Of a stretch of DNA of 64,000 bases, positions 1,743 through 56,975 are shown piece by piece. The translations under genes and the position numbers were made by a program. The first letter of the stretch is position 1. Every line of letters begins with the position of its first letter. The notes below the pieces were generated by a model. It searched no databases. It saw only the letters and a list, made by a program, of their open reading frames with translations, and had not been told where the DNA came from. Source of the stretch: an uncultured Ignavibacteria bacterium (GTDB lineage: Bacteria > Zixibacteria > MSB-5A5 > CAIYYT01); NCBI GenBank assembly GCA_964584025.1, contig CAZOYE010000011.1, forward strand, positions 25,588 through 89,587, in the 5' to 3' direction.

Positions 1743-1758
1743 TGGTACCAACGTCGCC
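1743..1758 (+). promoter_or_regulatory. weaker sigma-54-like -24/-12 element upstream of the LOX/dockerin gene
   Basis: TGGTACcaacgTCGCC: GG/GC spacing is correct, with one mismatch in each element. It lies 25 nt upstream of the ATG at 1783, with an AGGAGA Shine-Dalgarno between. Confidence 0.3.
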
Positions 1759-1782
1759 GCCAATAGCTTCTCAGGAGAACCG

Positions 1783-38918: not shown

Positions 38919-40586
38919 TCAGGATCCACCAGCCAACAATTCCCGCTGACGCGATTGGGCGGTATTGCCGTAGTAGATCTTCCTCCAGGTGTCTTTGTCT
39001 TCAAGATGGCGAAATGCCGTCGCGCCTTGCGCTGCCGGTGAGGCCGCCCATTCGCGGAAGGCATGGTGTTTCCACAGACGCAGAAACTCCGTGAAGTAAA
39101 TGTCGGCGACGGTCGTATCACCGCGAACGACGAGCATGTTTTCGTCGTTATTGGTGGTCGAGGCTTTCGAGAAATTCGCGGATCCCGAAACCACGATCGG
39201 ATCGCTGCCCAGCGGATCGATCAGCATGTACTTCGTGTGAACATAGCGGGCGTGCTGGTTAAGCCCACTAAGCTGCTCACGCAGCCACGCGTCGAATCTG
39301 TTTACTTTCATGAAGTTTCCTACGGCGAACCGATTCCATGGTTTAAACCGCAATTCCTTGACGACACTCTCCTGCGCCGGACCTCCGTCACTGTCGAGCA
39401 ATGCGTAGCGAAGGCCGCTGAAACTGCCTCGCATCATGTCGGCAAACGGCGCGCTGACGCCAAAGGGGAACGTCATGCAGGTCATCGTCTGTGAAGATCC
39501 GGCCAGATCGGCGTACCACTGGAGCAGTTTCTCGCCTTTGCGCGGGCTGAAAAGGATGGTCGTTCCGGTGTTCACCAACGTTGAAGTTGGCGTTGGTGTA
39601 TTGTTGTCGACCCAGGGCCGTAAGACTTTGGCTTCAGGGTCGCCAGCGAGTTCGTTCCAGTAGTCGAGATAGATCTGAGCAACGGTGCGGTCATTCACGA
39701 CATGACCGACATCGGAATGGCCGAAGATGCCGCCGCGAGTGAAGTTCGTTGAGCCTGTCCAGACGGCCTGAGGTACGCCGTTGCGCAGAAGCACGATGAA
39801 TTTATTGTGGGCGATGTAACTCGGATTCTCCTTCCGGGGCGTGCAGAGTACCGCTATGCCGGCAGCCTGAATGGCCGCATCGTTGGGTACCGCTACTTCG
39901 TCTTTGCGCGCGTCGTAGACGATCCTGACATCGGCGCCATCCGCTTTCGCCTTCTTGAGCGCCTCGAGTACAGGAGCGTAGGTGAACTGGTAGGCAGCCA
40001 CGCGGAGGGCAAACGACGCGTTTTTCGCACGGCCGATGAATTCGCCCAATGCTTCATTGAGCCCGCGCGAGAGCCAGTTCCAGGCAGGCTCACCAACTTC
40101 ATCGGGGCGTCGGTTGTTAAAGCGGCGCGCGTATTCCTGGCTGGCAGCGGCACCGCGATTGAACCAGACCTCGTGCGTACCAAGATCTTCCTCCTCGGTG
40201 GTAATCGTCACGCTCACTTCGGCGTCCTCCTGGAGATCGTCAGGCGTGCCCTTGAGCGCGACGACACGATACCGGTATTTGCGACCCGGCTTAGCGGTCA
40301 GGTCAGACCACGTAAAAGCCTGAAGAGGATGCTCGCGGGTGGATACGAGTCCGTCCAGGCCGACGCCCGGATCAGTTAGCGCGAAGGTCTTCATCCCCCG
40401 CAGCCAGTAGAGTTCATCCGCCTCGTAATCGCGCCGCTGGATCGCGAACCCAAGTACGCCACGCGACTTTGCCTCGGTCATGTCCCAGCCGAGCATCACA
40501 ACGTGAGTCCCCGCAACGGCAAGAAGCTTGATGCCGTCGTTGTTAGCCTTTCGTCTCATGTTTTTCCACCTTTCTAAGTTTAGCAT
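38919..40586 (-). CDS. phospholipase D-family protein (two HKD motifs) with an N-terminal beta-sandwich-like domain
   Basis: The ORF 38919..40586 is flanked by copies of the 27-nt hairpin (copy 1 at 38875-38901 between this gene and the upstream dockerin gene; copy 2 at 40788-40814 downstream of dnaK). First HKD motif AHNKFIVL...GSTNF; second VHTKYMLID...GSANFS. Confidence 0.8.
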   Translation of the reverse strand: MLNLERWKNMRRKANNDGIKLLAVAGTHVVMLGWDMTEAKSRGVLGFAIQRRDYEADELYWLRGMKTFALTDPGVGLDGLVSTREHPLQAFTWSDLTAKPGRKYRYRVVALKGTPDDLQEDAEVSVTITTEEEDLGTHEVWFNRGAAASQEYARRFNNRRPDEVGEPAWNWLSRGLNEALGEFIGRAKNASFALRVAAYQFTYAPVLEALKKAKADGADVRIVYDARKDEVAVPNDAAIQAAGIAVLCTPRKENPSYIAHNKFIVLLRNGVPQAVWTGSTNFTRGGIFGHSDVGHVVNDRTVAQIYLDYWNELAGDPEAKVLRPWVDNNTPTPTSTLVNTGTTILFSPRKGEKLLQWYADLAGSSQTMTCMTFPFGVSAPFADMMRGSFSGLRYALLDSDGGPAQESVVKELRFKPWNRFAVGNFMKVNRFDAWLREQLSGLNQHARYVHTKYMLIDPLGSDPIVVSGSANFSKASTTNNDENMLVVRGDTTVADIYFTEFLRLWKHHAFREWAASPAAQGATAFRHLEDKDTWRKIYYGNTAQSRQRELLAGGS

Positions 40587-40779
40587 TCACCCGCAATTTC
40601 CTCGCGGACTGGCTTTGCGAATACATGACTTGCTTTCCGCCTGCCCCGCGAAAAGCATTGGGCATCAGACCCAGAGCGCGGCAGAATAGCCCAGTTGTGA
40701 GATTTGCAGTTTGCCGTTAATTCCTAGACAACATAGTTCTCTCCGGCAAGGATGTCAAGGGAGTCAAGGCGCGTTAATG

Positions 40780-40814
40780 AATGGAAACGCCGTCAGGACA
40801 GAGTCCTGACGGCG
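40780..40814 (-). terminator. terminator for dnaK; copy 2 of the repeated 27-nt palindromic hairpin
   Basis: CGCCGTCAGGA-CAGAG-TCCTGACGGCG (40788-40814), 26/27 identical to copy 1. On the minus strand it is followed by TTTCCATT. Confidence 0.55.
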
Positions 40815-40859
40815 CGGATTTATGTAAAGGGGTTAAAGGGGAACTGATGCAGACGACTC

Positions 40860-42770
40860 TTACTTCACAACTTCATAGTCGGCATCGACGGCTTCCCCAC
40901 CGGACTGGGCTTGCGAACTGTTCGCACCGGCGGGCTCTTGCTGTGGCTGCGCCGACTGCGAACGCTGCTGCGCCGCCTGCTGATAGAGTTGCGACGCCGC
41001 ATTCTGCATGATCGTCTGGAGCCGGTCAGTTTCTGACTTCATGGCAGAGAAGTCGGATCCCTTGGTCAGCTCTTTGACCTTCTCAATCTGGCGTTCCAGT
41101 TCGGCTTTGACAGTCGCATCGATCTTGTCGCCGCTCTCCTTCACGAATTTCTCGCATTGGAAAGCCATCTGGTCGGCGTTGTTCTTGACCTCGACATCCG
41201 CCTTGCGCCTGCGGTCGGCTTCGGCATTGGACTCGGCATCGCGCACCATCTTCTCGATCTCTTGTTTGGAGAGGCCGGAAGAGGACTCAATGCGGATATT
41301 CTGCACCTTACCGGTACCGAGATCGCGCGCTGAGACATTCAGGATGCCGTTGGCGTCGATGTCGAAAGTGACTTCGATTTGCGGAACGCCGCGCGGCGCG
41401 GCCGGGATGCCATCAAGAAAGAAACGTCCGATCGTGCGATTGTCGAGGGCCATCTCGCGTTCGCCCTGCAGCACGTGAATCTCCACCGAGGTCTGGCTGT
41501 CGCCTGCCGTCGAGAACACCTGCGATTTTTTGGTCGGAATCGTCGTGTTGCGCTCGATCAATTTAGTAAAGACACCGCCCAGGGTTTCGATACCGAGCGA
41601 AAGCGGCGTGACATCGAGGAGCAGGACGTCTTTGACGTCGCCCGCGAGCACGCCACCCTGAATGGCGGCGCCGATCGCCACGACTTCGTCGGGATTGACG
41701 CCCTTGTGCGCTTCACGACCGAAGAAGCGTTCGACTTCCTCGACCACTTTCGGCATGCGGGTCATACCCCCCACAAGGACGACCTCGCCGATATCGGACG
41801 GCGAGACCTTGGCATCGGCCATCGCCTTGCGCACCGGTTCCATACAGCGCGTGATCAGGTCCTCGACCATCCCCTCGTATTTCGCCCGCGTGAGCGTGAT
41901 ATTGAGATGGCGCGGGCCGGAAGCGTCGGCAGTGATAAACGGCAGATTGATTGTAGTTTCTTTGACCGTCGACAATTCGATCTTGGCCTTCTCAGCGGCT
42001 TCCTTCAAGCGTTGCAACGCCATCGGATCGCGCGACAGGTCAATGCTGTCGGTTTTCTTGAATTCGGCAACCAGCCAATCGATGATGCGCTTGTCGAAAT
42101 CGTCGCCACCAAGATGCGTGTCGCCGTTAGTAGAGAGCACTTCGAAGACGCCCTCGCCCAATTCGAGTATTGAGATATCAAACGTGCCGCCGCCCAGGTC
42201 GAAGACAGCGATCTTCTGCGCCTTCTTCTTGTCGAGCCCGTAGGCCAGCGCGGCTGCGGTCGGCTCGTTGATAATGCGCATGACCTCGAGACCGGCAATC
42301 TTGCCGGCGTCTTTGGTAGCCTGCCGCTGCGCATCATTGAAATAGGCCGGGACGGTGATGACCGCTTTGGTAACTTTCTGGCCGAGATAGTCCTCGGCGG
42401 CCTGCTTGAGTTTGCCCAGGATCACGGCTGAGATCTCTTGCGGCGTAAACTCCTTGCCCTCAATCTCGATCACAGCCAGGCCGTTGCCGGCGCGCTTGAC
42501 CTTGTACGGGAAGTTCTTGATCTCTTCCGTCGTTTCGTCAAAGCGCCGCCCCATGAACCGCTTAACGGAGAAGACGGTATTGAGCGGGTTCGTGATCGCC
42601 TGGCGCTTGGCAATCTGGCCGACCAGGCGCTCTGATCCTTTCATGCCGACGACGGACGGCGTGGTGCGTCCGCCTTCAGCGTTGGCGATCACGACCGGTT
42701 CCTTGCCTTCCATCACGGAGAGGCAGGAGTTGGTCGTGCCCAGGTCGATGCCGATGATTTTATCTGACAT
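40860..42770 (-). CDS. dnaK: molecular chaperone DnaK (Hsp70)
   Basis: [18 protein letters not shown] and DLGGGTFD motifs plus full Hsp70 architecture. Start set at [11 protein letters not shown], which has an AAGGAGG RBS. Confidence 0.92.
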
Positions 42771-42886
42771 ATCTGTTGTTCCTCCTTCAGCGGGCGATCT
42801 CGAATCGTCCGCCTTTGCATCAGAAAGCCCGCCCAGTGACTCCGAGCGGGCTTGACGTTTCACTCGTCGCGTTTGAGAATTCTCGC

Positions 42887-43336
42887 TTAGCCGATCTTAA
42901 TGTCGATCTGCTTCGGCTTCACCTCTTCAGCCTTCGGCAGGACGATCTCAAGCACACCGTTCTTGTAGTTGGCCTGAATCTTCTGCGCATCGACATCCTT
43001 GGAGAGACGCAGGCTGCGCGTGAAGGTGCCGTAGATCCGCTCGATATGGCGGTAGTCCTTCTCCTCGTTGCGCGACTCGTACTTGCGTTCGCCGGTCACG
43101 ACGAGAGTGTTGTCTTCGAACTGCACCTTGATATCGTTCTTGTCGACGCCCGGCACATCGAGGTGGACGACGAAGCTCTCGGGGGTTTCGTGCACATCGG
43201 CACGCGGGACCCAACCGGCTTCGCTTTCAACCATCGACCCGCCATTGAAGCCGTTGAAAATCTCGGTGAACACGCGGTCCATTTCGTTGCTCAGGAGACC
43301 GAACCGATTCCGGGGCTTGCTGACTGTGAGATACAT
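42887..43336 (-). CDS. Hsp20/alpha-crystallin family small heat shock protein
   Basis: 149 aa with the alpha-crystallin domain pattern (…[21 protein letters not shown]…GVLEIVLPK). Confidence 0.85.
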
Positions 43337-43414
43337 GAGTGTTTCCTCCTCTGCTATCCGTTAGTTTACTTACTTTCGTTCACTTGCCGCGATCTTTGTC
43401 GCGACGCACTAACC

Positions 43415-43436
43415 TATTGCAGAGAGCGTGCCAACG
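43415..43436 (-). promoter_or_regulatory. sigma-54 (-24/-12) promoter candidate upstream of hsp20-dnaK
   Basis: Minus strand TTGGCACGCTCTCTGCAAT: TGGCACG-N4-CTGCA with GG/GC spacing 12, about 80 nt upstream of the hsp20 ATG. No CIRCE element seen. Confidence 0.5.
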
Positions 43437-43588
43437 CTTTGTGCTCTCGCGTAATTCGTTGCAATATCATCGGTTACGCAACACGCAAAAAGTTTGTGAT
43501 GATTGTCAGACAGTGCCACCATGGCAGGATTCATGCCAGAGCGGCACGATCTCTGTCAGGCTGTCAGTTAAGATGGCAGAGGTGAGTC

Positions 43589-44722
43589 TTAACTGCCAAT
43601 AGCGTAGAGACGACGTTGGGTAGTGACCACGTAAACGAATTCGTCAATCACGGCAGGAGAGGCGATGATCGTACCGCCGACGTTGACGCGGCCTTCGAGA
43701 GTGCCGTCATGGGCAAACTGATAAACGGAGCCGGCGCTGTTCGCCACAATGAAGGAATTACCGACGGCGATCGGGGAGGCTTGCACGACGCCGTCAGTTT
43801 CGTAGCGCCAGATGATGCCGCCATCTTCGGCGTTAAGGCAGTAGACCGTGCGATCGTCGGAGCCGAAGACGATCCGGTTACCCTTCAGTACCGCCGTGGT
43901 GTGGATCGAATTGACGGTTTGATGACGCCAGACTTCCGTTCCAGTCTCCGTATCCAGCGCTATGAAGCTGCCATCGCCGACGCCGGCGTAGAGGTATTTT
44001 GCGGCGAGCGGTTGAGCAAAGATCGTACTGCCGGTTTCGAAGCGCCACTTCTCGGCGCCGCTGGCGCGATCCAGGGCGATGATCACCCCGCGGTCGGTGC
44101 CGATGTAGACGGAGTTAGAGTCGATCGCCGGCGGCGCGTAGACGTGGGCGCGGAGATCTTGCTCCCACGTTATCTTTCCGGTGAATCGATTCAGAAGCGT
44201 GACCGTGCCGACTCGAGAGACGACAAAGAGATCGTCACCGTCGATGATTGGAGCCGCGGGCGGGTCGATGACTTTGAAGGTCCACAGTTTCTTCCCGTTG
44301 ACCAGGTTCATAGCTGTGAGCTGATCGGAACCTGATTCGTCGGCGAAGTAGAAGAGTTCGTCTTTCAAGGCAACGGCGGAGCCAACGGAAGAACCGGCTT
44401 CGAGTGAAGTGATCTCGTTACCACTGCGCGGGTTGAGGAAGTAGATTCGTTTATTATAAGAGGGCACGATGATGAACTGCGAGTTCCCGACTACCTGACC
44501 GCCAAGCCCACCGTTGAGTTTGCGCTCGAACTTAATGGTGTCGATTGGCGGCAGATCCATCTCGACGACGGCGTTTCCGGTGGCATTAACGCGATGCTGG
44601 GTGAAGCCGACGCCGGAGGGCGGCACCGACTTGAACGCCTTGAAATGGGGGGCGCAGGCGACGAGCGTAAGTACCAGGAGCAGTAGACTCGTCGGCCGCA
44701 TCATGGACGAAGTCGGAATCAT
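43589..44722 (-). CDS. PQQ-like beta-propeller repeat protein (BamB-like)
   Basis: Signal peptide. Repeated YAxxxxDGxxxWxxxxG propeller blades (LYAIGS, VYCLNAEDGGIIWRYET, IIALDRASGAEKWRFETG, etc.). Confidence 0.7.
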   Translation of the reverse strand: MIPTSSMMRPTSLLLLVLTLVACAPHFKAFKSVPPSGVGFTQHRVNATGNAVVEMDLPPIDTIKFERKLNGGLGGQVVGNSQFIIVPSYNKRIYFLNPRSGNEITSLEAGSSVGSAVALKDELFYFADESGSDQLTAMNLVNGKKLWTFKVIDPPAAPIIDGDDLFVVSRVGTVTLLNRFTGKITWEQDLRAHVYAPPAIDSNSVYIGTDRGVIIALDRASGAEKWRFETGSTIFAQPLAAKYLYAGVGDGSFIALDTETGTEVWRHQTVNSIHTTAVLKGNRIVFGSDDRTVYCLNAEDGGIIWRYETDGVVQASPIAVGNSFIVANSAGSVYQFAHDGTLEGRVNVGGTIIASPAVIDEFVYVVTTQRRLYAIGS

Positions 44723-45076
44723 CTACTGATTAGTCCCCTGCCCCGAATGAGTGAAATCGCGCAGCTGTCGTTTGATGTTCTCAATGCGCAATTCGTAATG
44801 CGCGGCGGCACTCCGCGAATCGCGTGAGGCAATTCGCAGCGAGTCGTTCAGCCGCAGGCCGAGATTAAGCATACCGATCAGCGAGTCGAGCGCGGCGGGC
44901 TCCAGAGCCGAAAGGTCGGTTCTGGAGAACAACTGTGCTGAACCGAGGAGTTCCACCTGCTTGTTCATGGCAATGTCCGATGCCGCCGGCGGAACCGGTT
45001 TGAAAAGCGCGGCTGCAGCGCCGATGACCGCCATCAGGATCACGAGCGCTATGACGATGATTCTACCGTTTACCAT
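44723..45076 (-). CDS. small membrane protein of unknown function
   Basis: Single transmembrane helix (IIVIALVILMAVIGAAAALF). Lies between the Omp85-like and BamB-like genes with no gaps. The start is uncertain (a 45115 alternative overlaps the upstream gene). Confidence 0.45.
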   Translation of the reverse strand: MVNGRIIVIALVILMAVIGAAAALFKPVPPAASDIAMNKQVELLGSAQLFSRTDLSALEPAALDSLIGMLNLGLRLNDSLRIASRDSRSAAAHYELRIENIKRQLRDFTHSGQGTNQ

Positions 45077-45086
45077 GGAGACAAGA

Positions 45087-47843
45087 TCAGAAGTTCCAGC
45101 CGAAGAAGAAATCAAATTTCAAGCCCGGCTCGAATGTTTCGAAGTCTGTCTTCTTGGAAAGATCGAAGCGCAGGACCGCCATGTAGCCCAGGGCTACTCT
45201 CGCGCCGACGCCTGCGGAGCCGTAGAAGCGGTCGAATTCGTCGTTCCAGCCGGAACCGACGTCGGCAAAAAGCGCTCCGCGAATAGCTTGGAAGCCCATG
45301 CGGCCAAAAGGAAAGCCGATAAACAGATTGTCGATGAGCGGAAAACGCAACTCATTGGACAACAAGACGACTTTGCGTGAGTAAAATTCACGGCGGTCGT
45401 AGCCGCGCAGCGACCAGCTGCCGCCGAGATACATCCGTTGCGGTTCTTCGCCGGCCGACCAGAACCCGAAGGCCCGCGTGGCAAATGCCGAGTATTTGCG
45501 AATCCGCAGATAATTGCGAAGGTCAACAAAGACCAGACGATTAAAGAACTGGCCGGAATAGAAATCGGTTGTCAGCCCGACGGTAGCGTTCAAACGCATC
45601 CCGTCGAGAGGACCGGAGATATCCCACAGAGAATTGTCGTGGATGAGCGACGCGTAATTGGTCGCCAGGATGGCATGGCGCTTGTCGAAGAAGAGCGGTC
45701 GTTCTTTGTAAGAGTGACGCAAGAACAACGAGGTCTCGACGCGTGTGAATTTCGACAATGGATACGATAGCAACCCCTGCACACCGCTCTGGCGTTCGTC
45801 GTAGTAGCCTTCGTAGTCGTCGTAGTGCTCATCATACAAGTGATAGGCGCCGAGACCATAGTTGATGCGGTGTGTCTTGTTGATGTAAGTAATGCCAACA
45901 TTGAATGATTCCAGGAGTTCGTTTTTGGAATCGGCTGTATTCGACAACAGGATGTAGTAAAGCTTATCGCCGAGCATGTCGGAAAACACGGCCTGAAATC
46001 CGCCGATCGTTCCGTACACGGCGTCGTAGGCGATGGCCGACTGAGCGACATCGAACGAAAACTCGTTGTTGTAGTCGATAACTCCGGCCTCTTCGCTGCC
46101 ACCCAGGCGATCGGGGTTCCAAGCGGCATACTGCGCTACCGGGGTCTCAACCGGCACAGCCGACGCCGTATCGAGCGGCATGGCGTAGACACTGAAGCTG
46201 AAGTTCTGGTACCCGGAGAACATCAATCGGTCGCCGTACATCACGGGGTCGAAGACGCCGGTAACAAAGGAGGACACCTGCTTGAGGCGCTCCTGGCGAT
46301 CAAGCAGATAGATATTGGAAACGCCGTTGCGGTCGGAGGAAAACAGGATCCCTTCGGAGGTGACATAGGGAGAGCGGTCGTTGAATCGGCCATAGGAGAG
46401 GGGTGCGATAACCGAGTCACGCCACTGATAGCGAAAGAGATTGGTAAACCCTTCATGGCCGTAGCCACCGCGATCGGAGGCAAAGATGATGTCCTCGCCG
46501 TCAAACACCGGCTCTGTGTCGAGGTAGATATCATTGGTCAAGCGTGTCAGGGCCGAGTCGGTCAGGTTCAGTAGGTACAGATCGTGGAAACCGCCGTAGG
46601 TTGCCCCGGAAAATACGATGCGCTTACCGTCCGGAGACCAAGATGGAGACAGCAGTTGGTACAGCTTGGCGAACTCAAAGGTCAGCACAATGTCCTGCTC
46701 GCGGACGTCATAGATATAAAGAACATCCCGGGAATACCGCTTGGAGATGAAGGCAATGCGGCCGTCTCCCGATGCGCTGATACGCGACTGCAGGAGATGG
46801 AGCGATTCAAAGGCGGGCGAGCGCTCGCCCTTGACGAGGGTGACTTCTTCATCCAGCGTCTGCGAGCGCATGTAAATTCCGGAGTAGCCAAGCTTATTGG
46901 CCTTGTAGGCGACCCAGTCGCTGGCGCCGCGAAACTCGATATTGAGCGGAACCGGCTTGACGGCGAACTGCTTTTCGGTAATCGGCGTCGTTGTCTTGGC
47001 CGGCAGATCAGCGTCCTTGAGATCGGGGAAATAGCGTTTTTTGAGCGAGTACACCCATTCGGCGCCAACTTCCTCGAGCGATTTACCGACCGTCACTTTG
47101 AATAACTGGCGAAAGGTCTGGGCTTTCCACCAGTTTTCGAACATCATCTGCAATTTGTCTTCGCCGTAATTGTCGGCAAGGAAATGACAAAACGACTCGC
47201 CATACTTGTACATGAAGAACGAGCCGGAGAGATACTCCAGTTCGTGAATCGGCCGCAGCGTGCCCTCGATAGCCATATCGGAGAGAATCATGTCGGCTTC
47301 GGCGTCCCACTCACGCGACCAGTATTCAGCCAGTCCTTCCGTAAACCACAGGGGAGGGCCGTAGAAGCTCATTTTGCGGTGCTGGGACATGATGGCCTGG
47401 ATTTTGTCGAAGGTGAACACGTGCACGAGTTCGTGGCGGATTACGCGCTGGAATTCGGAGATCGAGCCGTTGAAGGGCACGACCATGCGGCCCTTAAAGA
47501 ACTCGGTGAAGCCGGCCACGCTTTCGGGAAGCAGCGTCGGTGTTACGTTGGTCTGGGTGAAGAAGGTCGGCGCGCTGTAAATGATCAGGGGGATCTTGCG
47601 AAAGATATGGAAATTGAACTTGTCGGCGAGATGATCGTAGCTGGCCTCGGCGGCAGCCGCAGCGATTTCCGGGAGTCCGCCGTCGTCGTCGTAGAAGAAG
47701 ATGCGGAAGTGCTCGGTCTGCAGGACCTTCCACTCGAAGGGCTGGTACTGCACCTTGTTCTTACCGAAGTAGAACTGTGCCGCGGCATCGCTGAAGCCGA
47801 TGCTGAGGGCGACAGCGATGAGAGCGAGTCGACATAGAATCAT
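45087..47843 (-). CDS. Omp85-family outer-membrane beta-barrel protein fused to a PD40 (TolB-like) beta-propeller and an N-terminal HExxH domain
   Basis: Signal peptide. HELVHVF zinc-metallopeptidase-like motif near residue 150. PD40-type repeats (SPSWSPDGKRIVFS, IIFASDRGG, ILFSSDRNGVSNIYLL). C-terminal barrel with a bacterial-surface-antigen-like segment ending …KFDFFFGWNF (aromatic beta-signal). Confidence 0.6.
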   Translation of the reverse strand: MILCRLALIAVALSIGFSDAAAQFYFGKNKVQYQPFEWKVLQTEHFRIFFYDDDGGLPEIAAAAAEASYDHLADKFNFHIFRKIPLIIYSAPTFFTQTNVTPTLLPESVAGFTEFFKGRMVVPFNGSISEFQRVIRHELVHVFTFDKIQAIMSQHRKMSFYGPPLWFTEGLAEYWSREWDAEADMILSDMAIEGTLRPIHELEYLSGSFFMYKYGESFCHFLADNYGEDKLQMMFENWWKAQTFRQLFKVTVGKSLEEVGAEWVYSLKKRYFPDLKDADLPAKTTTPITEKQFAVKPVPLNIEFRGASDWVAYKANKLGYSGIYMRSQTLDEEVTLVKGERSPAFESLHLLQSRISASGDGRIAFISKRYSRDVLYIYDVREQDIVLTFEFAKLYQLLSPSWSPDGKRIVFSGATYGGFHDLYLLNLTDSALTRLTNDIYLDTEPVFDGEDIIFASDRGGYGHEGFTNLFRYQWRDSVIAPLSYGRFNDRSPYVTSEGILFSSDRNGVSNIYLLDRQERLKQVSSFVTGVFDPVMYGDRLMFSGYQNFSFSVYAMPLDTASAVPVETPVAQYAAWNPDRLGGSEEAGVIDYNNEFSFDVAQSAIAYDAVYGTIGGFQAVFSDMLGDKLYYILLSNTADSKNELLESFNVGITYINKTHRINYGLGAYHLYDEHYDDYEGYYDERQSGVQGLLSYPLSKFTRVETSLFLRHSYKERPLFFDKRHAILATNYASLIHDNSLWDISGPLDGMRLNATVGLTTDFYSGQFFNRLVFVDLRNYLRIRKYSAFATRAFGFWSAGEEPQRMYLGGSWSLRGYDRREFYSRKVVLLSNELRFPLIDNLFIGFPFGRMGFQAIRGALFADVGSGWNDEFDRFYGSAGVGARVALGYMAVLRFDLSKKTDFETFEPGLKFDFFFGWNF

Positions 47844-47846
47844 GCG

Positions 47847-50384
47847 TTATTCGGTCGTGGTGACGGTTTTGAGATAGCGTTCTGCCAGTTTAACGGACTC
47901 CGCCTTCCGGAGCTGCCCGAAGAGAGAACGCGTGCTCTGCTTGACGTATTTGCGCAGAATGTCGTCAAAGATGACCGATCTCAACATAATAAACGTCTTA
48001 ACGATCAACTCGTTCAACTCTTCATCGGGCTTGCTGAACAATTTATGGTAGGATTGCGACTCGCCTAAGAGAATTTGAGCCAGAAAAGTCAGGCTGCGCT
48101 GCTTGTCGAGCTTAATCAGGACGGGTAAAATGGCCTGGCGATCGGTCACATTGCGCAGGAAATAGTCTTCGACGTAGGGATACTCGGCGGCGGAGCCGAT
48201 TTGCCCAAGGGCATGAAGGGCCTTGATGCTGATTTCCCGGATCGGGTGCTGCAGGAGGCGGGAGATGCCGCGGGCACCCTCGGTGCCGCCGAGCTTCTCG
48301 AGCGCGACCAGCGACTCCATGACGACGCGTTCGTCGCTATCCTGGATAAAGCGCAAGACCAGGGCTACCGAATCGGGGTGTGGTATGTTACCCAGAACGA
48401 AAAGCACATTTCGGAGCTTGAACCAGTTTTCCGTCGAAAGCTCCGGGTTGTTGGCTGCCCTGGCCGTGAGGCTGCGATCGGAAAGGACCAGCTTAAAAGC
48501 GTTAATGGTCTTCTCGCCGAAGCTTGAGAGGATACGGATCAGTGTGATGCGGACGCCGCGCTCGCGATGGCTCAGGTAGCTGGTGAAGACCAGGATCGGC
48601 TCGAGGTTATTGAACTTCTCCAGCAGCGGAATCATCGGCTTGCCAACGAGGTCAAAGTGCTTGGCGAGCTTGGAGATCAGTGTCTCCGCCAACTGGGCTG
48701 AGGTCATTCGCTGATGGGCCTTGGCGGCGGCATCAGCGACACCCTCCTGATAGATGACGTTGAAATCGAGCTTCTGGACGATCAGGTCAAGCAATGAAGC
48801 CGCTTCTTCATACAGGTCGATATCGATGTAGCTTTGATAATATTTCTCCACGATATCGGCGAGGAGATTGAATTCGCGCAGACTGATGTTCGGTTCGGCG
48901 ATGCGTTCTTTCAACTCCAAGAGCTGCAGCCCGGAAACCGGCGCATTGTTGTTCTCCGCACAGATCGAGGCAAAGCGCAGGAGCGCTTCGTGCTGAGTTT
49001 CGGTCAGTTCATAGCCCTGGCGGTCGAGTCCGGCGTAGAACTTCTTGACGAAGTCCTCGGTGTATTGCATGTCGCTGATGGTTTCGAGCCAGCCGATGAC
49101 ATCATCCACATTGCTGGGGTCGACATCCCCGAGGAAGAAATCAGACTTGAAATTCTCGATCTCGATGTGGGCGATCTTTTTCGGCGAGGCGTCAGTTGAG
49201 AGGATCTCGCGCAGATAGTCGTTGTCAACCAGGTCAAGCTGCTCGATTTCTTCCTTGAGGCGCGGCAACAATTGAATCGCCTCGCGTTCCTGGAGCATTT
49301 CGCGAAAACCGGTGAGAGCTTTGCCGACTTCGGCCCGGCTGGCTTGTTTGCCATCTGCAAATGACATACGCAGAGCGGCTACAAGTAGCCCGAGCAGCTC
49401 TTCATTGTTGACTTCGTTAAACGATTCTTTTAGCCGCTTGTAGTCCTCGGCTGTAAACTTGACGCCGTTACCTGCTCCGCTTCCACCGGCTCCGCTGCCT
49501 CCCCCCCCGCGCCCGATTCCAATCGCGCGTAAGCCTTCCTGCACAGATGCGCTGACTCGGCCCTTCCATTCAACGAAGCCTCCGCCGCCGGTGCCCTGAC
49601 CTGTGCCACCTCCACTGCCACTGCCACCGGATCCCGGCCCGAGTCCACTACCACCACCTTGACCGCTTCCTGAGCCGCCGCCTTCTCCGCTACCAACTCC
49701 GTCGCCGGTGCCTCCCCCGGAACCGGCGCCGCCGCCACCGAGGCGCCGAGTCAGAACCTGCAGGAGCAGTTCCGGATGCTTGCGGAGGACGTCAGACATT
49801 GTTTGTTCGACCTGCTGCATCAATTCTGGTGAGTCGAGACCGCCGCCGGAACCACTGCCTCCGGATCCCAACCCTCCACCTCCGCCGGCAGACAGTTCAT
49901 CCTCCGAGACCACGCGCTCGCCATCACGGACGAGTTGATACTGGAGCTTGCCGACAGTGATGCGCCGGATCTTCTCAGTCTCAAGGAAGTTCTGAATGTC
50001 GCGATGTTCTTTCTTGAGGTTGATGTGCGAAAGGAATTTTTCGAATTCGTCGGGCGTGACGCCGACCTCAAACGAGACGCTGTGCAGACCCGATTCAACC
50101 AGAACCTTCCCCAATCCTTCGGTAAGCATTTTCGCATCAAGCGGGATACCGTCACCGAGAAGAGTGCCTTCGGCGATGGCAAAGACAACAGTCTTGTCGG
50201 CCGCCAGAAGTTCTTTGAGAATCGCGAATGGTCGTTCCGCAGCCTTGGCGGAAATGGGATGACCGGGTGGATATATTCCGAGTTTGCGCGCCGCTGCTGA
50301 GACCTCGCGCAGGAAGGAGACGAGGGTCTCGGGTGAGAGCGCCGATTGCGTGGCTCGCTCCATATCTAAGTTAATCGGCAGCAA
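47847..50384 (-). CDS. HEAT-repeat protein with a long Gly/Ser-rich low-complexity linker
   Basis: C-terminal PBS-lyase/HEAT-like repeats (…VVMESLVALEKLGGTEGARGISRLLQHPIREISIKALHALGQIGSAAE…). A central ~150-aa GGGSG-type tract. Ends 3 nt before the downstream Omp85-like gene. Confidence 0.6.
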   Translation of the reverse strand: MLPINLDMERATQSALSPETLVSFLREVSAAARKLGIYPPGHPISAKAAERPFAILKELLAADKTVVFAIAEGTLLGDGIPLDAKMLTEGLGKVLVESGLHSVSFEVGVTPDEFEKFLSHINLKKEHRDIQNFLETEKIRRITVGKLQYQLVRDGERVVSEDELSAGGGGGLGSGGSGSGGGLDSPELMQQVEQTMSDVLRKHPELLLQVLTRRLGGGGAGSGGGTGDGVGSGEGGGSGSGQGGGSGLGPGSGGSGSGGGTGQGTGGGGFVEWKGRVSASVQEGLRAIGIGRGGGGSGAGGSGAGNGVKFTAEDYKRLKESFNEVNNEELLGLLVAALRMSFADGKQASRAEVGKALTGFREMLQEREAIQLLPRLKEEIEQLDLVDNDYLREILSTDASPKKIAHIEIENFKSDFFLGDVDPSNVDDVIGWLETISDMQYTEDFVKKFYAGLDRQGYELTETQHEALLRFASICAENNNAPVSGLQLLELKERIAEPNISLREFNLLADIVEKYYQSYIDIDLYEEAASLLDLIVQKLDFNVIYQEGVADAAAKAHQRMTSAQLAETLISKLAKHFDLVGKPMIPLLEKFNNLEPILVFTSYLSHRERGVRITLIRILSSFGEKTINAFKLVLSDRSLTARAANNPELSTENWFKLRNVLFVLGNIPHPDSVALVLRFIQDSDERVVMESLVALEKLGGTEGARGISRLLQHPIREISIKALHALGQIGSAAEYPYVEDYFLRNVTDRQAILPVLIKLDKQRSLTFLAQILLGESQSYHKLFSKPDEELNELIVKTFIMLRSVIFDDILRKYVKQSTRSLFGQLRKAESVKLAERYLKTVTTTE
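49440..49900. repeat. GGN-codon low-complexity nucleotide tract (Gly/Ser-rich coding)
   Basis: Plus strand is dominated by imperfect (CCN/GCC/ACC)n runs, e.g. ccactgccactgccaccggatcccggcccgagtccactaccaccacc. Confidence 0.7.
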
Positions 50385-50495
50385 CTGATTAGATATTTAG
50401 AGCGATGTGCTCAAATGCTGCGCTGACGTTCATTGTGAAACAAATGAGCGACAGTCAACTGGGTAAGCTCATGAAGGCAACAGGTTACGGCCCTT

Positions 50496-51689
50496 TTACT
50501 TGAGAAAAAGCAGTTTGAGCGCTCCTGATTTGCCGTATTGACGGCAAAAATAAATGCCGCTGGAAACAACATTTCCTGATGAATCCCGGCCATCCCACAT
50601 GAAGTAGTCTCTCCCATCGACGTTGAAGACGGTCACCAATCGGCGCACTTTGCGACCGAGAAGATCCATGATCACCATCTCCGCGGGGGAATCAGAGACG
50701 ATGGTCGTTTCCGAGTTGAATGGATTGGGGAAGCTCGACATCGAGCCGTTGGATGGGATGTCCTGTGCCGCCTGGTCGCCGGCGCTCGTCATGAGGTCGA
50801 TGAGAAGCGCATCAGACTTCGGCCCCAGATTATCGCCGAGCCAGGCAGCGACTGAAAGGTACTTGCCGTCGATTTCTTCTCGAGAGAAGACATAGTGCAT
50901 CGCCGAGGTGCCAGGCACAATTTGCTCCGGCATAGTAGCGGCTGCATCTCCAATACTGATCATGAAGATCGAAAAGGAATCAGGAAATTCCGCGGAAGGG
51001 GCGAAGCTGCCGATAGTGTCGCAGACGCTATAGGACATGCGCAGATGGACGTTCATATCAGTCAGATCAATCCAGGTGATTGACTCGCCTTCCGGAGTGC
51101 CGAACCACTGCCCCTCGGCGCCGATCGTGTAAGAGACCGCCAAGGCCGGTGCGGACGGAGTTGCTTCGAGCCACTCGACCATGACGTACACGGCATTACC
51201 GACACTGCAAAGCGCTTGAACCGGAAAGCGGCACCATTGCGCCGCTGAAGCGATTGTAGAACAGGCGACAATGTTCTCCCAGAGGGGGGCCTCCGACGAT
51301 GTGCCTGGCAGATGATCATAGATTGCCAGGCGAAACGGCGACATGAAGTCCCCGGGCTCCTCGACGTGCGGATCGCTCGGCCAGAGGCGCAGTTCCACGG
51401 CTTCGACAGCGATCTCCGGCCTTTCAACAGGCAGTTCCCTGACAAATCTGGCGCCGACGTACTCCGACGAATAGAACACAAATGAGATCGGTGTCTCATT
51501 ACGATCGCCGGCGAGTTGGCTGTTTACTCCGGGATAGTACCAGGCGACGACGACACTGTCGTCTCTTGCGGCATAGGAGAGTCCGTATGGCGCGTGGATT
51601 TCATCCGACTTGATTTCAGTTGAAACCGCCATGGCCGCCGCCAGGACGACAGCAAACGGAACCCTTATTTGAGCACCCCTACCATTCAT
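50496..51689 (-). CDS. secreted protein with a T9SS C-terminal sorting domain (CTD)
   Basis: Signal peptide MNGRGAQIRVPFAVVLAAAMAVST. The C-terminal ~80 aa FPNPFNSETTIVSDSPAEMVIMDLLGRKVRRLV...WDGRDSSGNVVSSGIYFCRQYGKSGALKLLFLK matches the Por-secretion CTD pattern (NPFN...DxxGRxV...WDGxxxxGxxxxSGxYF.R......KLLLxK). Confidence 0.75.
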   Translation of the reverse strand: MNGRGAQIRVPFAVVLAAAMAVSTEIKSDEIHAPYGLSYAARDDSVVVAWYYPGVNSQLAGDRNETPISFVFYSSEYVGARFVRELPVERPEIAVEAVELRLWPSDPHVEEPGDFMSPFRLAIYDHLPGTSSEAPLWENIVACSTIASAAQWCRFPVQALCSVGNAVYVMVEWLEATPSAPALAVSYTIGAEGQWFGTPEGESITWIDLTDMNVHLRMSYSVCDTIGSFAPSAEFPDSFSIFMISIGDAAATMPEQIVPGTSAMHYVFSREEIDGKYLSVAAWLGDNLGPKSDALLIDLMTSAGDQAAQDIPSNGSMSSFPNPFNSETTIVSDSPAEMVIMDLLGRKVRRLVTVFNVDGRDYFMWDGRDSSGNVVSSGIYFCRQYGKSGALKLLFLK

Positions 51690-51791
51690 GGATATGTTGG
51701 AAGATATTAGATCGTGCGCTGAGGCGCAAGCCATGAAATGGCTCAAGCATAATAGAATCAGTTCTCGATGATGTAATGATCGAAGAGCGGA

Positions 51792-52652
51792 TTAGTCGCG
51801 CGCCGAACTCAGCAATTCGCCCTTGGTGGTGGAATAGACTTCACGAACGGAGGCGAATTCGAACTCGGAAAGCATGCGGCGAAGTTTGGGTTCGACGGTC
51901 GAGAGATTCGTGTAATGGCGCAGTCGGCTTTTTAAAGCCACGCCGCTCTCGCGCGGTTGATCGGGATCGAGTTCCCAGGGATGAAGGTAGATCATGGCCG
52001 GATAGCCGGCTGCATTATATAAACGAATGGCTCGTCGTGTGTACCAGTACGGAAACATGCGAAAACTTCCGCCGCCACAAGCCGGCAGCCGTTTGCCGAG
52101 AAAGACGCAGGTTACCGGCGGGATTTCCAACAGCCGACCCTGGCTGGTATTGATGAAGTGTGGATAGCGAGGAGCGCTGGGGTCGCCGTAAAGATCGTGG
52201 CGGATCGGATAGATGCTTGAGTCATACTCGATGCCACATTTCACGAGAATTTCCCAGATCCACTCGCGTCCGCGTTCGGCCGAAAAGGTGGGAGCGCGAT
52301 AACCTTTGACCCGGACTCCGGAGGCATCTTCCAAAGCCCCGATCGAGCGGCGGATATCGTCCTCGAATTGCTTCTCGTCGAGGCGTGTCAGCGTATCGTG
52401 GCCGTAGCCGTGGGTCGCCAGTTCGTGGCCGCGCGCCTTGATCATTGCCATAATGTGCGGGAAGCGCTCGGCGAGCCAGCCAAGTGTGAAGAAAGTCGCG
52501 GTGGCGTGATATTCGTCGAGAATATCGAAAATCCGCATCATGTTCATCGTGAGCCGGCTTTGGCGCTTGGACCACTCCGAACGCGGAATGTGGCTGTAAA
52601 ACGCTTCGACCTGGAAGTGCTCTTCCACGTCAAATGACAGAATGTTCTTCAT
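51792..52652 (-). CDS. polysaccharide deacetylase, exopolysaccharide-locus subfamily (XrtA/PEP-CTERM-locus-type)
   Basis: MKNILSFDVEEHFQVEAF N-terminus typical of that subfamily. NodB-like His/Asp residues (HGYGHD). Confidence 0.7.
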   Translation of the reverse strand: MKNILSFDVEEHFQVEAFYSHIPRSEWSKRQSRLTMNMMRIFDILDEYHATATFFTLGWLAERFPHIMAMIKARGHELATHGYGHDTLTRLDEKQFEDDIRRSIGALEDASGVRVKGYRAPTFSAERGREWIWEILVKCGIEYDSSIYPIRHDLYGDPSAPRYPHFINTSQGRLLEIPPVTCVFLGKRLPACGGGSFRMFPYWYTRRAIRLYNAAGYPAMIYLHPWELDPDQPRESGVALKSRLRHYTNLSTVEPKLRRMLSEFEFASVREVYSTTKGELLSSARD

Positions 52653-52655
52653 ATC

Positions 52656-53360
52656 TCACGACTTCTTGGTTGCGTAGTTGTAACCGTAGTACTGATGGTT
52701 GTAGTGGTACGGCAACACGCCGGACACATTGTTCAGTACAACACCGACGATATTCGCATCGGTCTTACTGATTATATCGGCAGCCCGCTTGATAACTTCT
52801 TTCTGCGTTGCTCCTGCCTTGACGACGAGAAGAAGTCCGTCCATGTTTGGACCCAGGACCACCGGGTCGGATACCGGTATTATCGGGGCGCAATCGACGA
52901 AAACCAAGTCAAAATAGAATTTCACCTTTTCAATCGCCTCGATCACTTTATCGCTTTCAAACAGCTCTGTAGGGTTGTGTTTCAGAGTGCCGGCGGTGAG
53001 AATCCAAAGATCGCTGATCTTGGTCGGCTTAAAGGCGTCCTCGGCCTTGGCAGTGCCGTCGATGATATCGGTCACGCCGGGCTCGAGAGGAAGGTCAAAT
53101 ATCTTGTGGATCGTCGGGCGGCGCAGGTCGGCGTCGATAAGGATTGTCTTGCGTTTCTTATAGGAGGCCGCCGTGATCGCCAGATAAGACGACACGGTAG
53201 ACTTCCCCTCCGAGAGCATTGCCGAGGTGACAAGGAAAGACCGTTTCGAGACACCCTTGACAGGCCGGGTGATATTGTGCAGCAGGCGGCGGAATTCGGT
53301 ACCGACAACGGACTCGGGATGGTAATACTCCCAGATCGGTCTGCGCCGCTCCTTGTTCAC
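52656..53360 (-). CDS. CpsD/CapB-type bacterial tyrosine autokinase (cytoplasmic BY-kinase domain)
   Basis: Walker A SAMLSEGKSTVSSYLA, Walker A' ILIDADLRRP, Walker B LVFVDCAP, and a C-terminal tyrosine cluster YHYNHQYYGYNY. Confidence 0.85.
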   Translation of the reverse strand: MNKERRRPIWEYYHPESVVGTEFRRLLHNITRPVKGVSKRSFLVTSAMLSEGKSTVSSYLAITAASYKKRKTILIDADLRRPTIHKIFDLPLEPGVTDIIDGTAKAEDAFKPTKISDLWILTAGTLKHNPTELFESDKVIEAIEKVKFYFDLVFVDCAPIIPVSDPVVLGPNMDGLLLVVKAGATQKEVIKRAADIISKTDANIVGVVLNNVSGVLPYHYNHQYYGYNYATKKS

Positions 53361-53362
53361 AA

Positions 53363-54487
53363 CTATCCTTTCAGGATCGCCTTGACTAAAGCATCGAAGC
53401 CGCGGAATTCGTTCTCCGCGAGGCGCAGGCTCTTCTTTGCGCGCTCGAAGTCCGGATTGATCTTGAGAGCTTCCTGATACTCCTTGATCGCCTTGGAGTG
53501 AATGAACCGCCCCATGAGCGTGTAGGCGACCGCAAGATCGTAGTGAAGGTCCGGGAAATGAGGATTCTTGGCAATGGCGTCCTTGAGATTCTCGATGCGG
53601 CGGCGCAGTGTTTTCTCGTCGATTTTGTCAGTGACGAGCATGAATTTCAGGTAGACGCTGGAGAACTCGCGGAAGCGCTGTTCCTTCTTACGCTCGCGAG
53701 CCAGTACGAGCTTTGTGTAGGCGCCTTCCAGATCGCCCTCGCCAAACAGGCGCCGGCCGTCATCGAAGTTTTTGTCCTGATACTCGGGGCAGACGACAAT
53801 GGCTCGCTCGAGATTTTCGGCGATTTTTTCGGTGGCTTCCGAGAACAGCTTGAAGTCCTCGCGTCTTATCGAATTTAAGACGTAGGTCAGCGCCTTGTTG
53901 TAGTAGGCGTCACCGTAGTAGATGTTGATGGTGATGGCCTCATCGAATTCGATCATGGCGCGCTTGCAGCTCCCGTGCGCCAGATAGGCCTCGCCGAGGT
54001 TGTTGCGATAGTCCGCAAAACGCGGTTGTGAATCGACGCAGCGATTGAAGACTTCGATCGCTTCGGCGAACTTGTTCTGCATCATCAGGACCTGCCCCAG
54101 GTGACACCACTGCTCGTGGCCGTCGGGCCGCAGCGAGACCGCGCGGCGGAACAGGACCTCGGCTTCGTTGTACATCTTCTTGTACATGAGCGCGAGAGCA
54201 AGGTAGTCGATCTGCTCGGCTTCGTTGGAGCTGAGCGCCTCTTTATAACGCTCAAAGATGTGCTCGACTTCTTCTTTGCGTTCTTTGTGGGCGTTCTTCA
54301 CCAGTTCGAGCAGTTCCTGCTCGGGCAGATGCGGGTAGACGTTTTCTTCAACCGTTTCGAGCAACTGACCCTCGGCGAAGATCGACGAGCGAATCTGGTG
54401 ATTCGCCGTGTCGTTCACCGTCTGGATCAGATATTCGCGATCGGTCGAAGCGACCCGCGAGTTGAGTCGATAAGTTTCCATCAGCAC
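53363..54487 (-). CDS. TPR-repeat protein within the exopolysaccharide cluster
   Basis: Multiple canonical 34-aa TPR units (AxxYxxLGxAY-type). Confidence 0.65.
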   Translation of the reverse strand: MLMETYRLNSRVASTDREYLIQTVNDTANHQIRSSIFAEGQLLETVEENVYPHLPEQELLELVKNAHKERKEEVEHIFERYKEALSSNEAEQIDYLALALMYKKMYNEAEVLFRRAVSLRPDGHEQWCHLGQVLMMQNKFAEAIEVFNRCVDSQPRFADYRNNLGEAYLAHGSCKRAMIEFDEAITINIYYGDAYYNKALTYVLNSIRREDFKLFSEATEKIAENLERAIVVCPEYQDKNFDDGRRLFGEGDLEGAYTKLVLARERKKEQRFREFSSVYLKFMLVTDKIDEKTLRRRIENLKDAIAKNPHFPDLHYDLAVAYTLMGRFIHSKAIKEYQEALKINPDFERAKKSLRLAENEFRGFDALVKAILKG

Positions 54488-54490
54488 TTC

Positions 54491-56005: not shown

Positions 56006-56970
56006 TCTCCCAACCTGTCAATAAGCAGAACGGTCGATGTGATTGTCGTCCCTAACGTGATGATGTCACGGAATAGATTGAACCCGCTGCCGACTCCACC
56101 CGAGCGCGCCGGGATGTAAATGGCATCCTCGGGCTTGAGCAGATAGCGCTGCGGGCTGCCGGTTTTGAGCTGTTTGTCGAGATTCACCTCGTAAACATTG
56201 GCGTAGTCGCCGCTCTTGGAAGAGACGCGGATCTTCTTGAGGTCGGCATCCGGCGTGGTGCCTCCAGCCAGCGCGATCGCCTCAATCAGATCAAGGCGGG
56301 CATCCAGCGTGTACGCATTCGGCCGAGTCACAGCGCCAACGATGTAGAAAACGTTACGTTTGGCTTCACTTTCGGCAAGATTGATATTCGTCGGCACGCC
56401 GCCCAGAGTGGGAGGCACGCGAATGATGTCCTTTGCATGCACTTCCGGGAGTTGCGAAAAATCGCGCGATCGAATCGCCGAGAGTACGTCGACGGTGAGC
56501 ACGGTGCCTGGATCAACGGCGCCGCCGCGGATCAGGCGGACATTGGTTAAGTCGCCGGTAGCAGTCGGGCCGCCCATTTCCTTAATGACCGTCCAGATAT
56601 CAGGAATGACTTCCCTGGCATATCTGCCTGGAGAAACAACCTCACCTTCAACAAAAACGGTCTGAGAATTGAAAGCCGTGACGACAACGGTGGCCTGGCT
56701 GATGTCGCGATTAAATCGCGAGACTTGCTCGACGATCTTACGGGATAGTTGCGATGTGGTCAAGCCGGCCGCCGTGATTTCACCGATGACTGAAAGGGTG
56801 ATTTTGCCGTCGGCATTCACAACAACCGACTGGTCGAGAGTAGGCGCCTGCCAGAACGAGACCTGCAGAACATCATCAATCCCGATGACGTAGTCTGCTA
56901 GGGCGCTCTGCGGGGCCGCTAACCCGAGAAAAACCAGCAACAAGATGGGTAGTAATAACTTCCGAGTCAT
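56002..56970 (-). CDS. polysaccharide export protein (Wza/EpsE-like; Poly_export + SLBB domains)
   Basis: Signal peptide. DYVIGIDDVLQVSFWQAPTLD...NADGKITLSVIGEITAAGLT is the Poly_export signature. Followed by SLBB-like repeats. Confidence 0.8.
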   Translation of the reverse strand: MTRKLLLPILLLVFLGLAAPQSALADYVIGIDDVLQVSFWQAPTLDQSVVVNADGKITLSVIGEITAAGLTTSQLSRKIVEQVSRFNRDISQATVVVTAFNSQTVFVEGEVVSPGRYAREVIPDIWTVIKEMGGPTATGDLTNVRLIRGGAVDPGTVLTVDVLSAIRSRDFSQLPEVHAKDIIRVPPTLGGVPTNINLAESEAKRNVFYIVGAVTRPNAYTLDARLDLIEAIALAGGTTPDADLKKIRVSSKSGDYANVYEVNLDKQLKTGSPQRYLLKPEDAIYIPARSGGVGSGFNLFRDIITLGTTITSTVLLIDRLGE

Positions 56971-56975
56971 AACTC

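Follow-up and report, generated by a model that had tools for sequence, protein, structure and literature searches.

A WD40-like Omp85 protein with a putative zinc peptidase domain is paired with a BamB-like lipoprotein gene in Zixibacteria

Results and discussion

Organization of the four-gene cluster

This work deals with four tightly packed genes, here called A, B, C and D, which lie on the minus strand of a 64,000-nucleotide (nt) window of contig CAZOYE010000011.1 (assembly GCA_964584025.1, positions 25,588 to 89,587 of the forward strand) from an uncultured Ignavibacteria bacterium, assigned by GTDB to Zixibacteria; MSB-5A5; CAIYYT01. All coordinates given below refer to this window. The corresponding open reading frames (ORFs) occupy positions 47847–50384 (A), 45087–47843 (B), 44723–45115 (C) and 43589–44722 (D). 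For gene A, the ATG at 50363 is the most likely start codon, yielding a product of 838 amino acids (aa) that is 100 % identical to the NCBI protein P0121, and the most plausible start of gene C is the ATG at 45076 (117 aa), the alternative ORF with a TTG start overlapping B by 29 nt. With the starts corrected in this way, the spacers measure 3 nt between A and B, 10 nt between B and C and 0 nt between C and D, the ATG of B being placed 3 nt past the stop codon of A and that of D directly after the stop codon of C. The initial annotation of the region, which had described four packed genes with spacers of 0–11 nt, is therefore borne out in this respect. The cluster and the parts of protein B are the following.

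47847..50363, minus strand: gene A, HEAT-repeat and Gly-rich protein, 838 aa (ORF and match to NCBI P0121)
45087..47843, minus strand: gene B, 918 aa, with signal peptide, predicted gluzincin peptidase, TolB-like propeller and Omp85 barrel (profiles, AlphaFold2 model and fold search)
47778..47843, minus strand: signal peptide of B, residues 1–22, ...SDAAA/QFYFGKNK (sequence)
47754-47777, minus strand: mature N-terminus of B, QFYFGKNK, residues 23–30 (alignments)
46989..47735, minus strand: predicted peptidase domain of B, about residues 37–285, mostly helical, Peptidase_MA_2 / M9-like (PF13485 on residues 84–267, motifs, AlphaFold2 model)
47421..47435, minus strand: HELVH motif of B, residues 137–141 (sequence; invariant in alignments)
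46149..46964, minus strand: six-bladed beta-propeller of B, TolB/PD40-type, about residues 294–565
45090..46058, minus strand: 16-stranded Omp85 barrel of B, about residues 596–918
44723..45076, minus strand: gene C, 117 aa, one N-terminal transmembrane helix (sequence)
43589..44722, minus strand: gene D, 377-aa lipoprotein, PQQ-type beta-propeller of the BamB fold class (PQQ_2, TIGR03300, matches in the Protein Data Bank, lipobox)

Domain architecture of protein B

Protein B begins with a signal peptide ending in ...SDAAA, immediately before the segment QFYFGKNK that would form the N-terminus of the mature protein. In an alignment of B with 36 close homologs (alignment A1), residues Q23, F26, G27, N29 and K30 of this segment are invariant, and its N and K are conserved without exception also in 34 divergent homologs, only 23–42 % identical to B (alignment A3). 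An AlphaFold2 model of B was built from 36 homologs (predicted local distance difference test, pLDDT, 78; predicted template-modelling score, pTM, 0.73). Residues 23–30 appeared unstructured in this model (pLDDT <50), yet they are among the best-conserved stretches of the whole family.

The region that follows, modelled as a helical domain at residues 37–285, matches the Peptidase_MA_2 profile (PF13485; 3.7e-6, residues 84–267) at a level under the gathering score, and gives weaker matches to M9 and M61 peptidases. The zinc-peptidase-like motif HELVH that had been noticed in the N-terminal part of B lies here, at residues 137–141. Both H137-E-L-V-H141 and the downstream E169-G-x-x-E173 are invariant in B and its 36 close homologs, and the HExxH motif, E169, G170 and E173 remain so across the 34 divergent ones. 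In addition, the segment WFTEGLAEYW of B aligns with the zinc-ligand segment WWSEGIAEY of the M9 collagenase 7esi, both following the pattern W-x-x-E-G-x-A-E-Y, and H141 and E169 are separated by 28 residues, the same spacing as between the residues that we take to be their counterparts in ColG, H527 and E555. H137, H141 and E169 are inferred to be the zinc ligands, with E138 as the catalytic base. B thus carries the fully conserved HExxH and downstream Glu that define the gluzincins, clan MA(E), and conservation of HExxH...E to this degree argues for a putative active zinc peptidase.

Residues 294–565 were modelled as an all-beta propeller, and this protein matches PD40 (2e-8), the TolB profile TIGR02800 (3e-20) and TolB in the Protein Data Bank (PDB; 1.8e-11). 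As initially annotated, it is TolB-like PD40 repeats and not POTRA domains that precede the barrel, no match to POTRA (PF07244) being present in the profile search of B or in the Pfam lists of 240 listed homologs. TolB is the best match of this propeller, and links between TolB, Pal and BamA have been discussed by Heinz & Lithgow (2014, Front Microbiol 5:370, PMC4104836), so that the B module might be viewed as a structural envelope tether, holding on to Pal-like or peptidoglycan-associated proteins through the propeller (and D), with the HExxH domain as a mere binding scaffold. We consider this highly improbable, since all four catalytic and zinc-binding residues are invariant over large distances, as is typical of an active enzyme.

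The C-terminal part of B was modelled with 16 strands between residues 596 and 916, the N-terminal strands of the barrel being of low confidence. Searching the model against the PDB with Foldseek retrieved the barrels of BamA and TamA at E-values of 1e-7 to 1e-10, with template-modelling (TM) scores of about 0.6 on barrel-only entries, as well as TolB. The Omp85-type barrel proposed for the C-terminus is thus borne out by the model, with 16 strands and a fold of the kind found in BamA, TamA and FhaC. The linker between propeller and barrel, likewise of low confidence, shows neither helices nor a beta-alpha-alpha-beta-beta unit, and this lack of helices argues against a POTRA domain at that position of the model. 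Profiles matching the barrel were ShlB (0.005), NCBIfam Omp85_fam (NF047779; 7e-8, residues 786–897) and BamA (TIGR03303; 0.0014, residues 658–918), and B remains below the curated Omp85 thresholds (PF01103; NF047779, 32 bits against a 200-bit cut-off). Among the profiles that had been proposed for this protein, PD40 thus gave a match and Peptidase_MA_2 one under its gathering score, but the threshold of PF01103 was not reached. Precomputed PF01103 matches exist for many B homologs, and P0222 scores 41 bits where the gathering score is 24.

Omp85 proteins share two hallmarks known from BamA and FhaC, namely (V/I/L)RG(F/Y) in loop 6 (L6) and (F/G)xDxG in strand 13. B displays the L6 motif L-R-G-Y at residues 812–815, the beta-13 motif F-A-D-V-G at residues 859–863 and the C-terminal signal FFFGWNF, its sequence ending in ...KFDFFFGWNF. 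Residues R813, G814, F859, D861 and G863 are invariant among the close homologs, and the R, G and D of these motifs also among the divergent ones.

Protein B in the WD40-like Omp85 subfamily

A word-indexed search returned more than 3900 homologs of B at E<=1e-5, so that B is not a chance ORF. The best 120 of them are 50–100 % identical to B, about 920–940 aa long and, where labelled, of Zixibacteria origin. An exhaustive search of 50 %-identity representatives yielded 981 clusters at E<=1e-30, with full-length single-stretch matches down to 29 % identity. Where the sources give names to these relatives, they read 'BamA/TamA family outer membrane protein', 'peptidase MA family metallohydrolase' and 'Tol biopolymer transport system component'.

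Heinz & Lithgow distinguished ten bacterial Omp85/TpsB subfamilies, one of which was termed 'WD40-like' (PMC4104836). Table S2 of that study contains PF01103+PF07676 architectures, and Table S3, with about 89 UniProt members, gives BamA 4k3b or TamA 4c00 as barrel match, TolB 2w8b as propeller match and, in addition, a 'best aminopeptidase hit' (1z5h, 4kxd, 4ar1, 3qnf; F3, APN, ERAP1, ColG). Rhodothermus marinus, Ignavibacterium album, Caldithrix abyssi and Anaeromyxobacter are probably among the organisms represented there. A 2024 paper sums up the group as Omp85s 'with divergent WD40 and peptidase domains'. B has the same tri-domain plan, with PD40/TolB-like repeats replacing POTRA and a thermolysin-fold N-terminal domain like those of aminopeptidases and collagenases. 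Since this architecture was already catalogued in 2014, B is a Zixibacteria member of a known, uncharacterised family, and the locus taken alone is a further member of that family and no new kind of system. The 2014 study was purely computational, did not include Zixibacteria and described no coupled BamB-like gene, whereas B has one. Its authors called the WD40-like subfamily reminiscent of a BamA-BamB fusion, an idea that fits B poorly because the propeller fused to its barrel has six blades and resembles TolB, and because the BamB-like protein is encoded by an adjoining gene of its own.

A longer paralog subfamily of 1000–1090 aa occurs in Zixibacteria and KSB1 (L080:6001-9231 and L081:6001-9135). 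Compared with B, these paralogs have low-complexity tethers of 30–80 residues between propeller and barrel and a longer L6, and the one at L080 is flanked by FlgD_ig proteins and proteins with tails of the type IX secretion system (T9SS).

The lipoprotein D and the products of A and C

Protein D contains the lipobox L-V-A-C23, conserved in its orthologs, and matches PQQ_2 (1e-39) and the BamB profile TIGR03300 (1.7e-45, 155 bits against a cut-off of 285). In the PDB it matches Pseudomonas aeruginosa BamB (4hdj, 6e-23), Escherichia coli BamB (about 3e-15) and the archaeal PQQ propeller 3hxj (2e-29), and its length, taken by itself, is compatible with eight blades. The proposal that D is a PQQ-propeller lipoprotein of the BamB type holds as regards lipobox, PQQ_2 match and BamB fold, but the protein falls under the BamB equivalog cut-off and matches the non-BamB structure 3hxj at least as well, so that 'BamB-like' denotes here a fold and not orthology. 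BamB is an outer-membrane lipoprotein with an eight-bladed PQQ-like propeller that binds POTRA2-3 of BamA. D resembles BamB (YfgL) in being a PQQ-propeller lipoprotein encoded beside an Omp85 gene, and differs from it both in its score and in having as neighbour a protein without the POTRA3 docking site.

The association of such a barrel with a BamB-fold lipoprotein had led to the region being read as encoding an outer-membrane insertion or processing machine similar to the machinery for beta-barrel assembly (BAM) or the module for translocation and assembly (TAM). According to this explanation, B and D would form a BamA/TamA-like insertase for dedicated outer-membrane proteins, with the propeller/peptidase-like module replacing POTRA as receptor and D taking the place of BamB. 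The barrel of B is indeed closest to those of BamA and TamA, the L6 RGY and FxDxG motifs required for BamA function are conserved, the low confidence of the N-terminal barrel strands in the model could be understood in the same sense, and protein assembly is the default hypothesis of Heinz & Lithgow for subfamilies of unknown role (PMC4104836). However, instead of the five POTRA domains of BamA or the three of TamA, B has a peptidase and a propeller, and it therefore lacks the site at which BamB docks on BamA. Its BamA and TamA profile scores are far under the cut-offs (17 bits against 297 for TIGR03303), no TamB-like partner is present in the cluster, and an invariant catalytic HExxH...E would be needless for an insertase. 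The invariance of this triad across divergent homologs favours a protease over a pure insertase, and an insertase appears rather unlikely. A canonical BamA was found neither in the 64-kb window nor in any fetched locus.

Gene A encodes, as annotated, a HEAT/Gly-rich protein, with a HEAT_2 match of 4e-13, C-terminal HEAT repeats of the phycobilisome (PBS)-lyase type and profile matches to alphaRep/HEAT structures. In an alignment of A with its homologs (alignment A2), the Gly-rich insert, at about residues 160–300, is present only in the close clade, and the Y-P-x-x-H-P motif of the N-terminal domain is invariant throughout. Profile searches of A gave HEAT repeats only, with no match for the YPxxHP domain. 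Its AlphaFold2 model, mostly an alpha-solenoid, had a pLDDT of 60 (<50 in the N-terminal domain) and was too poor for a fold search, and the homolog search, dominated by Gly-rich words, returned 11 close relatives only. Protein C agrees with its description as a one-helix membrane protein, having a single N-terminal hydrophobic helix, and no Pfam or NCBIfam match was obtained for it.

Conservation of the B-D pair

Synteny was analysed in a sample with one genome per species, comprising 79 loci, all from metagenome-assembled genomes of the Zixibacteria lineage, which were mapped by tblastn and jackhmmer; one of them, L006, is 99 % identical. Complete Zixibacteria chromosomes with the cluster include CP070777, CP070674, CP070742 and OY970208. 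D lies directly after B in 64 of the 67 Zixibacteria loci with enough flank. An overlap of 13 nt between the B and D ORFs is seen in 49 of these 64 loci, where the start codon of D (ATG or GTG) is formed by the Gly-Trp codons of the terminal G-W-N-F of B, the classic arrangement for translational coupling. A second sample consisted of 80 metagenome loci picked for their distance from B, and here D followed only the B subfamily of about 940 aa (19/63). A protein of 1321 aa, P0175, was considered as a natural B-D fusion and discarded: its match to B ends at loop 6, the last barrel strands being missing, so that it is in all likelihood an artefact of a frameshift where the B and D genes overlap, and confirms only their adjacency.

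The other members of the cluster are less constant. A-family genes were detected in 30 of 43 informative loci: 7 have them upstream of B, 21 between D and hsp20, and 2 at both places. Homologs of C were restricted to the four closest genomes (L001, L002, L006, L007), and C has the look of a gene that was inserted recently between B and D. With B-D constant, A mobile and C clade-specific, the constant functional core would be formed by B and D. The synteny expected among relatives was thus found for this pair, but not for A, whose place changes, nor for C. What appears to be new at this locus is the phylum-wide tight coupling of B to a BamB-like lipoprotein, together with a mobile HEAT-protein neighbour. 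Further downstream, hsp20 follows B in 39 of 46 Zixibacteria loci and dnaK in 32 of 46, with dnaJ after dnaK in several of the mapped loci.

In three high-GC metagenome loci (L151:2896-4992, L152:2860-4935 and L160:84-1712) a HEAT-repeat gene precedes a B-like gene, with a 4-nt overlap in L160. These HEAT proteins have a signal peptide and lack the YPxxHP domain of A, from which it follows that a distant lineage, too, has a HEAT partner beside this class of Omp85, in that case with predicted export.

Proposed function of the B-D module

We tentatively propose, with a probability of about 0.45, that B is an outer-membrane-anchored, periplasm-facing zinc peptidase which, together with D, cleaves unfolded or misassembled envelope polypeptides in processing or quality control. 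After removal of the signal peptide, the C-terminal Omp85 barrel would be inserted into the outer membrane as an anchor, and the N-terminal zinc gluzincin, packed against the TolB-like propeller, would presumably face the periplasm. Lipoprotein D would act as its partner on the inner side of the outer membrane, possibly in a physical complex with B, and the propellers might serve as docking platforms or substrate filters. Barrel anchoring, periplasmic orientation and binding of D to the module are suggested by homology, and the catalytic step solely by the invariance of the residues involved. To our knowledge, all characterised Omp85 N-terminal domains except type-Vd passengers are periplasmic, as are TolB and BamB, which favours the periplasmic side for the B module. 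The pairing with D, in 64/67 Zixibacteria loci as well as in 19 independent metagenome loci, speaks for a B-D partnership, and the conserved chaperone neighbours hsp20-dnaK(-dnaJ) are in line with the proposal. Periplasmic quality control is one of the possibilities raised for enzyme-bearing Omp85s (PMC4104836). An assembly of this kind, able to bind and cleave unfolded envelope polypeptides, would be comparable in function to BepA, a zinc protease of the periplasm that has an HExxH motif and a protein-interaction domain and acts on stalled outer-membrane proteins at BAM (PMC13067283). BepA differs from B in being a soluble, unfused M48 peptidase with TPR, so that we refer to a functional analogy and claim no homology. 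A combination of PD40/Tricorn-type blades with a peptidase is also found in Tricorn and DPP-IV-type enzymes (precomputed matches: Tricorn_N, Tricorn_2nd, DPPIV_N), and the propeller may filter substrates; those enzymes are soluble serine peptidases, whereas B is a putative metallopeptidase on a membrane barrel.

The presence of an enzyme domain N-terminal to an Omp85 barrel is shared with PlpD, the patatin-Omp85 protein of type Vd, which shows that an enzyme in this position can be exported (PMC4104836). By the same token, B could be a type-V-like self-exporter whose barrel translocates the peptidase-propeller to the outside of the cell, where the protease, either anchored or released, would serve to feed on external proteins. 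The resemblance of its peptidase to secreted M9 collagenases, the low-confidence linker between propeller and barrel, replaced in the long paralogs by a low-complexity tether of 30–80 residues, and the T9SS-type-tail neighbours of some paralogs would be in line with such a route. PlpD, whose enzyme is a lipase, and the TpsB proteins nevertheless retain POTRA, whereas B has none and thus departs from the passenger-POTRA-barrel order of type Vd. Moreover, conservation of the L6 motifs points to a lumen that is plugged as in BamA, TolB-type propellers are periplasmic, and the coupled protein D shows a fold typical of a lipoprotein in the periplasm. Self-export of B therefore seems quite improbable to us.

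Several observations weigh against a periplasmic zinc peptidase acting together with D. The Peptidase_MA_2 match of B reaches 27.3 bits against a gathering score of 32.4, a threshold that some of its homologs exceed, and the periplasmic orientation of the N-terminal module is itself an inference. The 1000–1090-aa paralogs have no D neighbour, and D is consequently not required by the family as a whole. No signal peptide was detected in A or in any A ortholog examined, so that A is probably cytoplasmic, which is awkward for an envelope machine. Both Hsp20 and DnaK are also cytoplasmic and their genes have a predicted promoter of their own; their nearness may be mere conserved gene order. Finally, our literature search retrieved no experimental work on any member of this family beyond the 2014 catalogue and its citations. 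As to the initial annotation as a whole, its domain reading is borne out, an insertion machine appears rather unlikely, A and C are not constant members of the cluster, and the architecture has been known since 2014.

A more far-reaching version, which we regard as rather doubtful, is that B and D (perhaps with A) make up an autonomous proteolytic machine of the Omp85 type, which would have a BamB-like subunit of its own and, in Zixibacteria, a genetic link to the stress module hsp20-dnaK. Its barrel would use the lateral gate or the periplasmic face to catch outer-membrane proteins that are stalled or unwanted, and would hand them to the fused zinc protease. If this were true, the B-D machine would represent a third functional class of Omp85, a degrader or processor, besides insertases and translocases. 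Omp85 proteins stand at the centre of outer-membrane biogenesis, and studies have dealt only with their insertase and translocase classes. The class that combines PD40 repeats and a peptidase is large, is found across numerous uncultured lineages as well as some cultured ones, and has a strictly conserved active site. The locus provides a working hypothesis, namely that an Omp85 bearing a protease has a BamB-like lipoprotein dedicated to it, and a defined two-gene module for expression.

The hsp20-dnaK region and other features of the window

The genes hsp20 and dnaK had been described as lying next to the cluster. They are indeed directly downstream of D, but behind a 252-nt gap that contains a sigma-54-like promoter of their own. 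The features of this region are listed below.

42887-43336, minus strand: hsp20 (HSP20 at 9e-27)
40860-42863, minus strand: dnaK (HSP70 at 4e-265)
43418..43433, minus strand: sigma-54-type -24/-12 element, TGGCACgctctCTGCA (motif scan)
43522-43538, minus strand: palindrome, TGGCATgaatcCTGCCA, about 100 nt further upstream than the -24/-12 element

The element in the D-hsp20 gap, TGGCAC-N5-CTGCA at 43433-43418, is near-consensus and located about 80 nt upstream of hsp20. Of 46 Zixibacteria loci, 7 have this element upstream of hsp20, the background of the motif scan being 0.004 per 500 nt, which suggests sigma-54 control of heat-shock genes in this clade, and the palindrome TGGCATgaatcCTGCCA looks like an enhancer-binding site. 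With a putative sigma-54 promoter of its own, hsp20-dnaK would constitute here a separate, probably enhancer-dependent transcription unit. The conserved nearness of these genes suggests a stress context shared with the cluster, short of proof. A generic scan for sigma-70 promoters and terminators gave matches no more frequent than in shuffled sequence, and no RNA element, thermometers included, was found with Rfam in the interval 40000-52000. A 12-nt inverted repeat at 43562-43598 (92 % complementary, with a 13-nt loop and no T-run) straddles the stop codon of D and may form a hairpin at the mRNA end.

Directly upstream of gene A, an exopolysaccharide-type cluster extends over 50496-58715 on the minus strand and is kept upstream in the closest relatives. 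It encodes a T9SS-tail-like protein, a DUF3473 polysaccharide deacetylase, a ParA-like ATPase, a TPR protein, Wzz, a Poly_export/SLBB protein and a GGDEF cyclase. Elsewhere in the window, positions 1690-4650 of the plus strand encode a 986-aa protein that joins lysyl-oxidase, PPC and CarboxypepD_reg domains; lysyl-oxidase homologs are uncommon among bacteria. Lastly, a 940-aa ORF at 60309-63131 on the minus strand combines HATPase_c_2, HAMP and SpoIIE phosphatase domains with a transposase-type helix-turn-helix, and is either an unusual fusion or the product of two merged genes.

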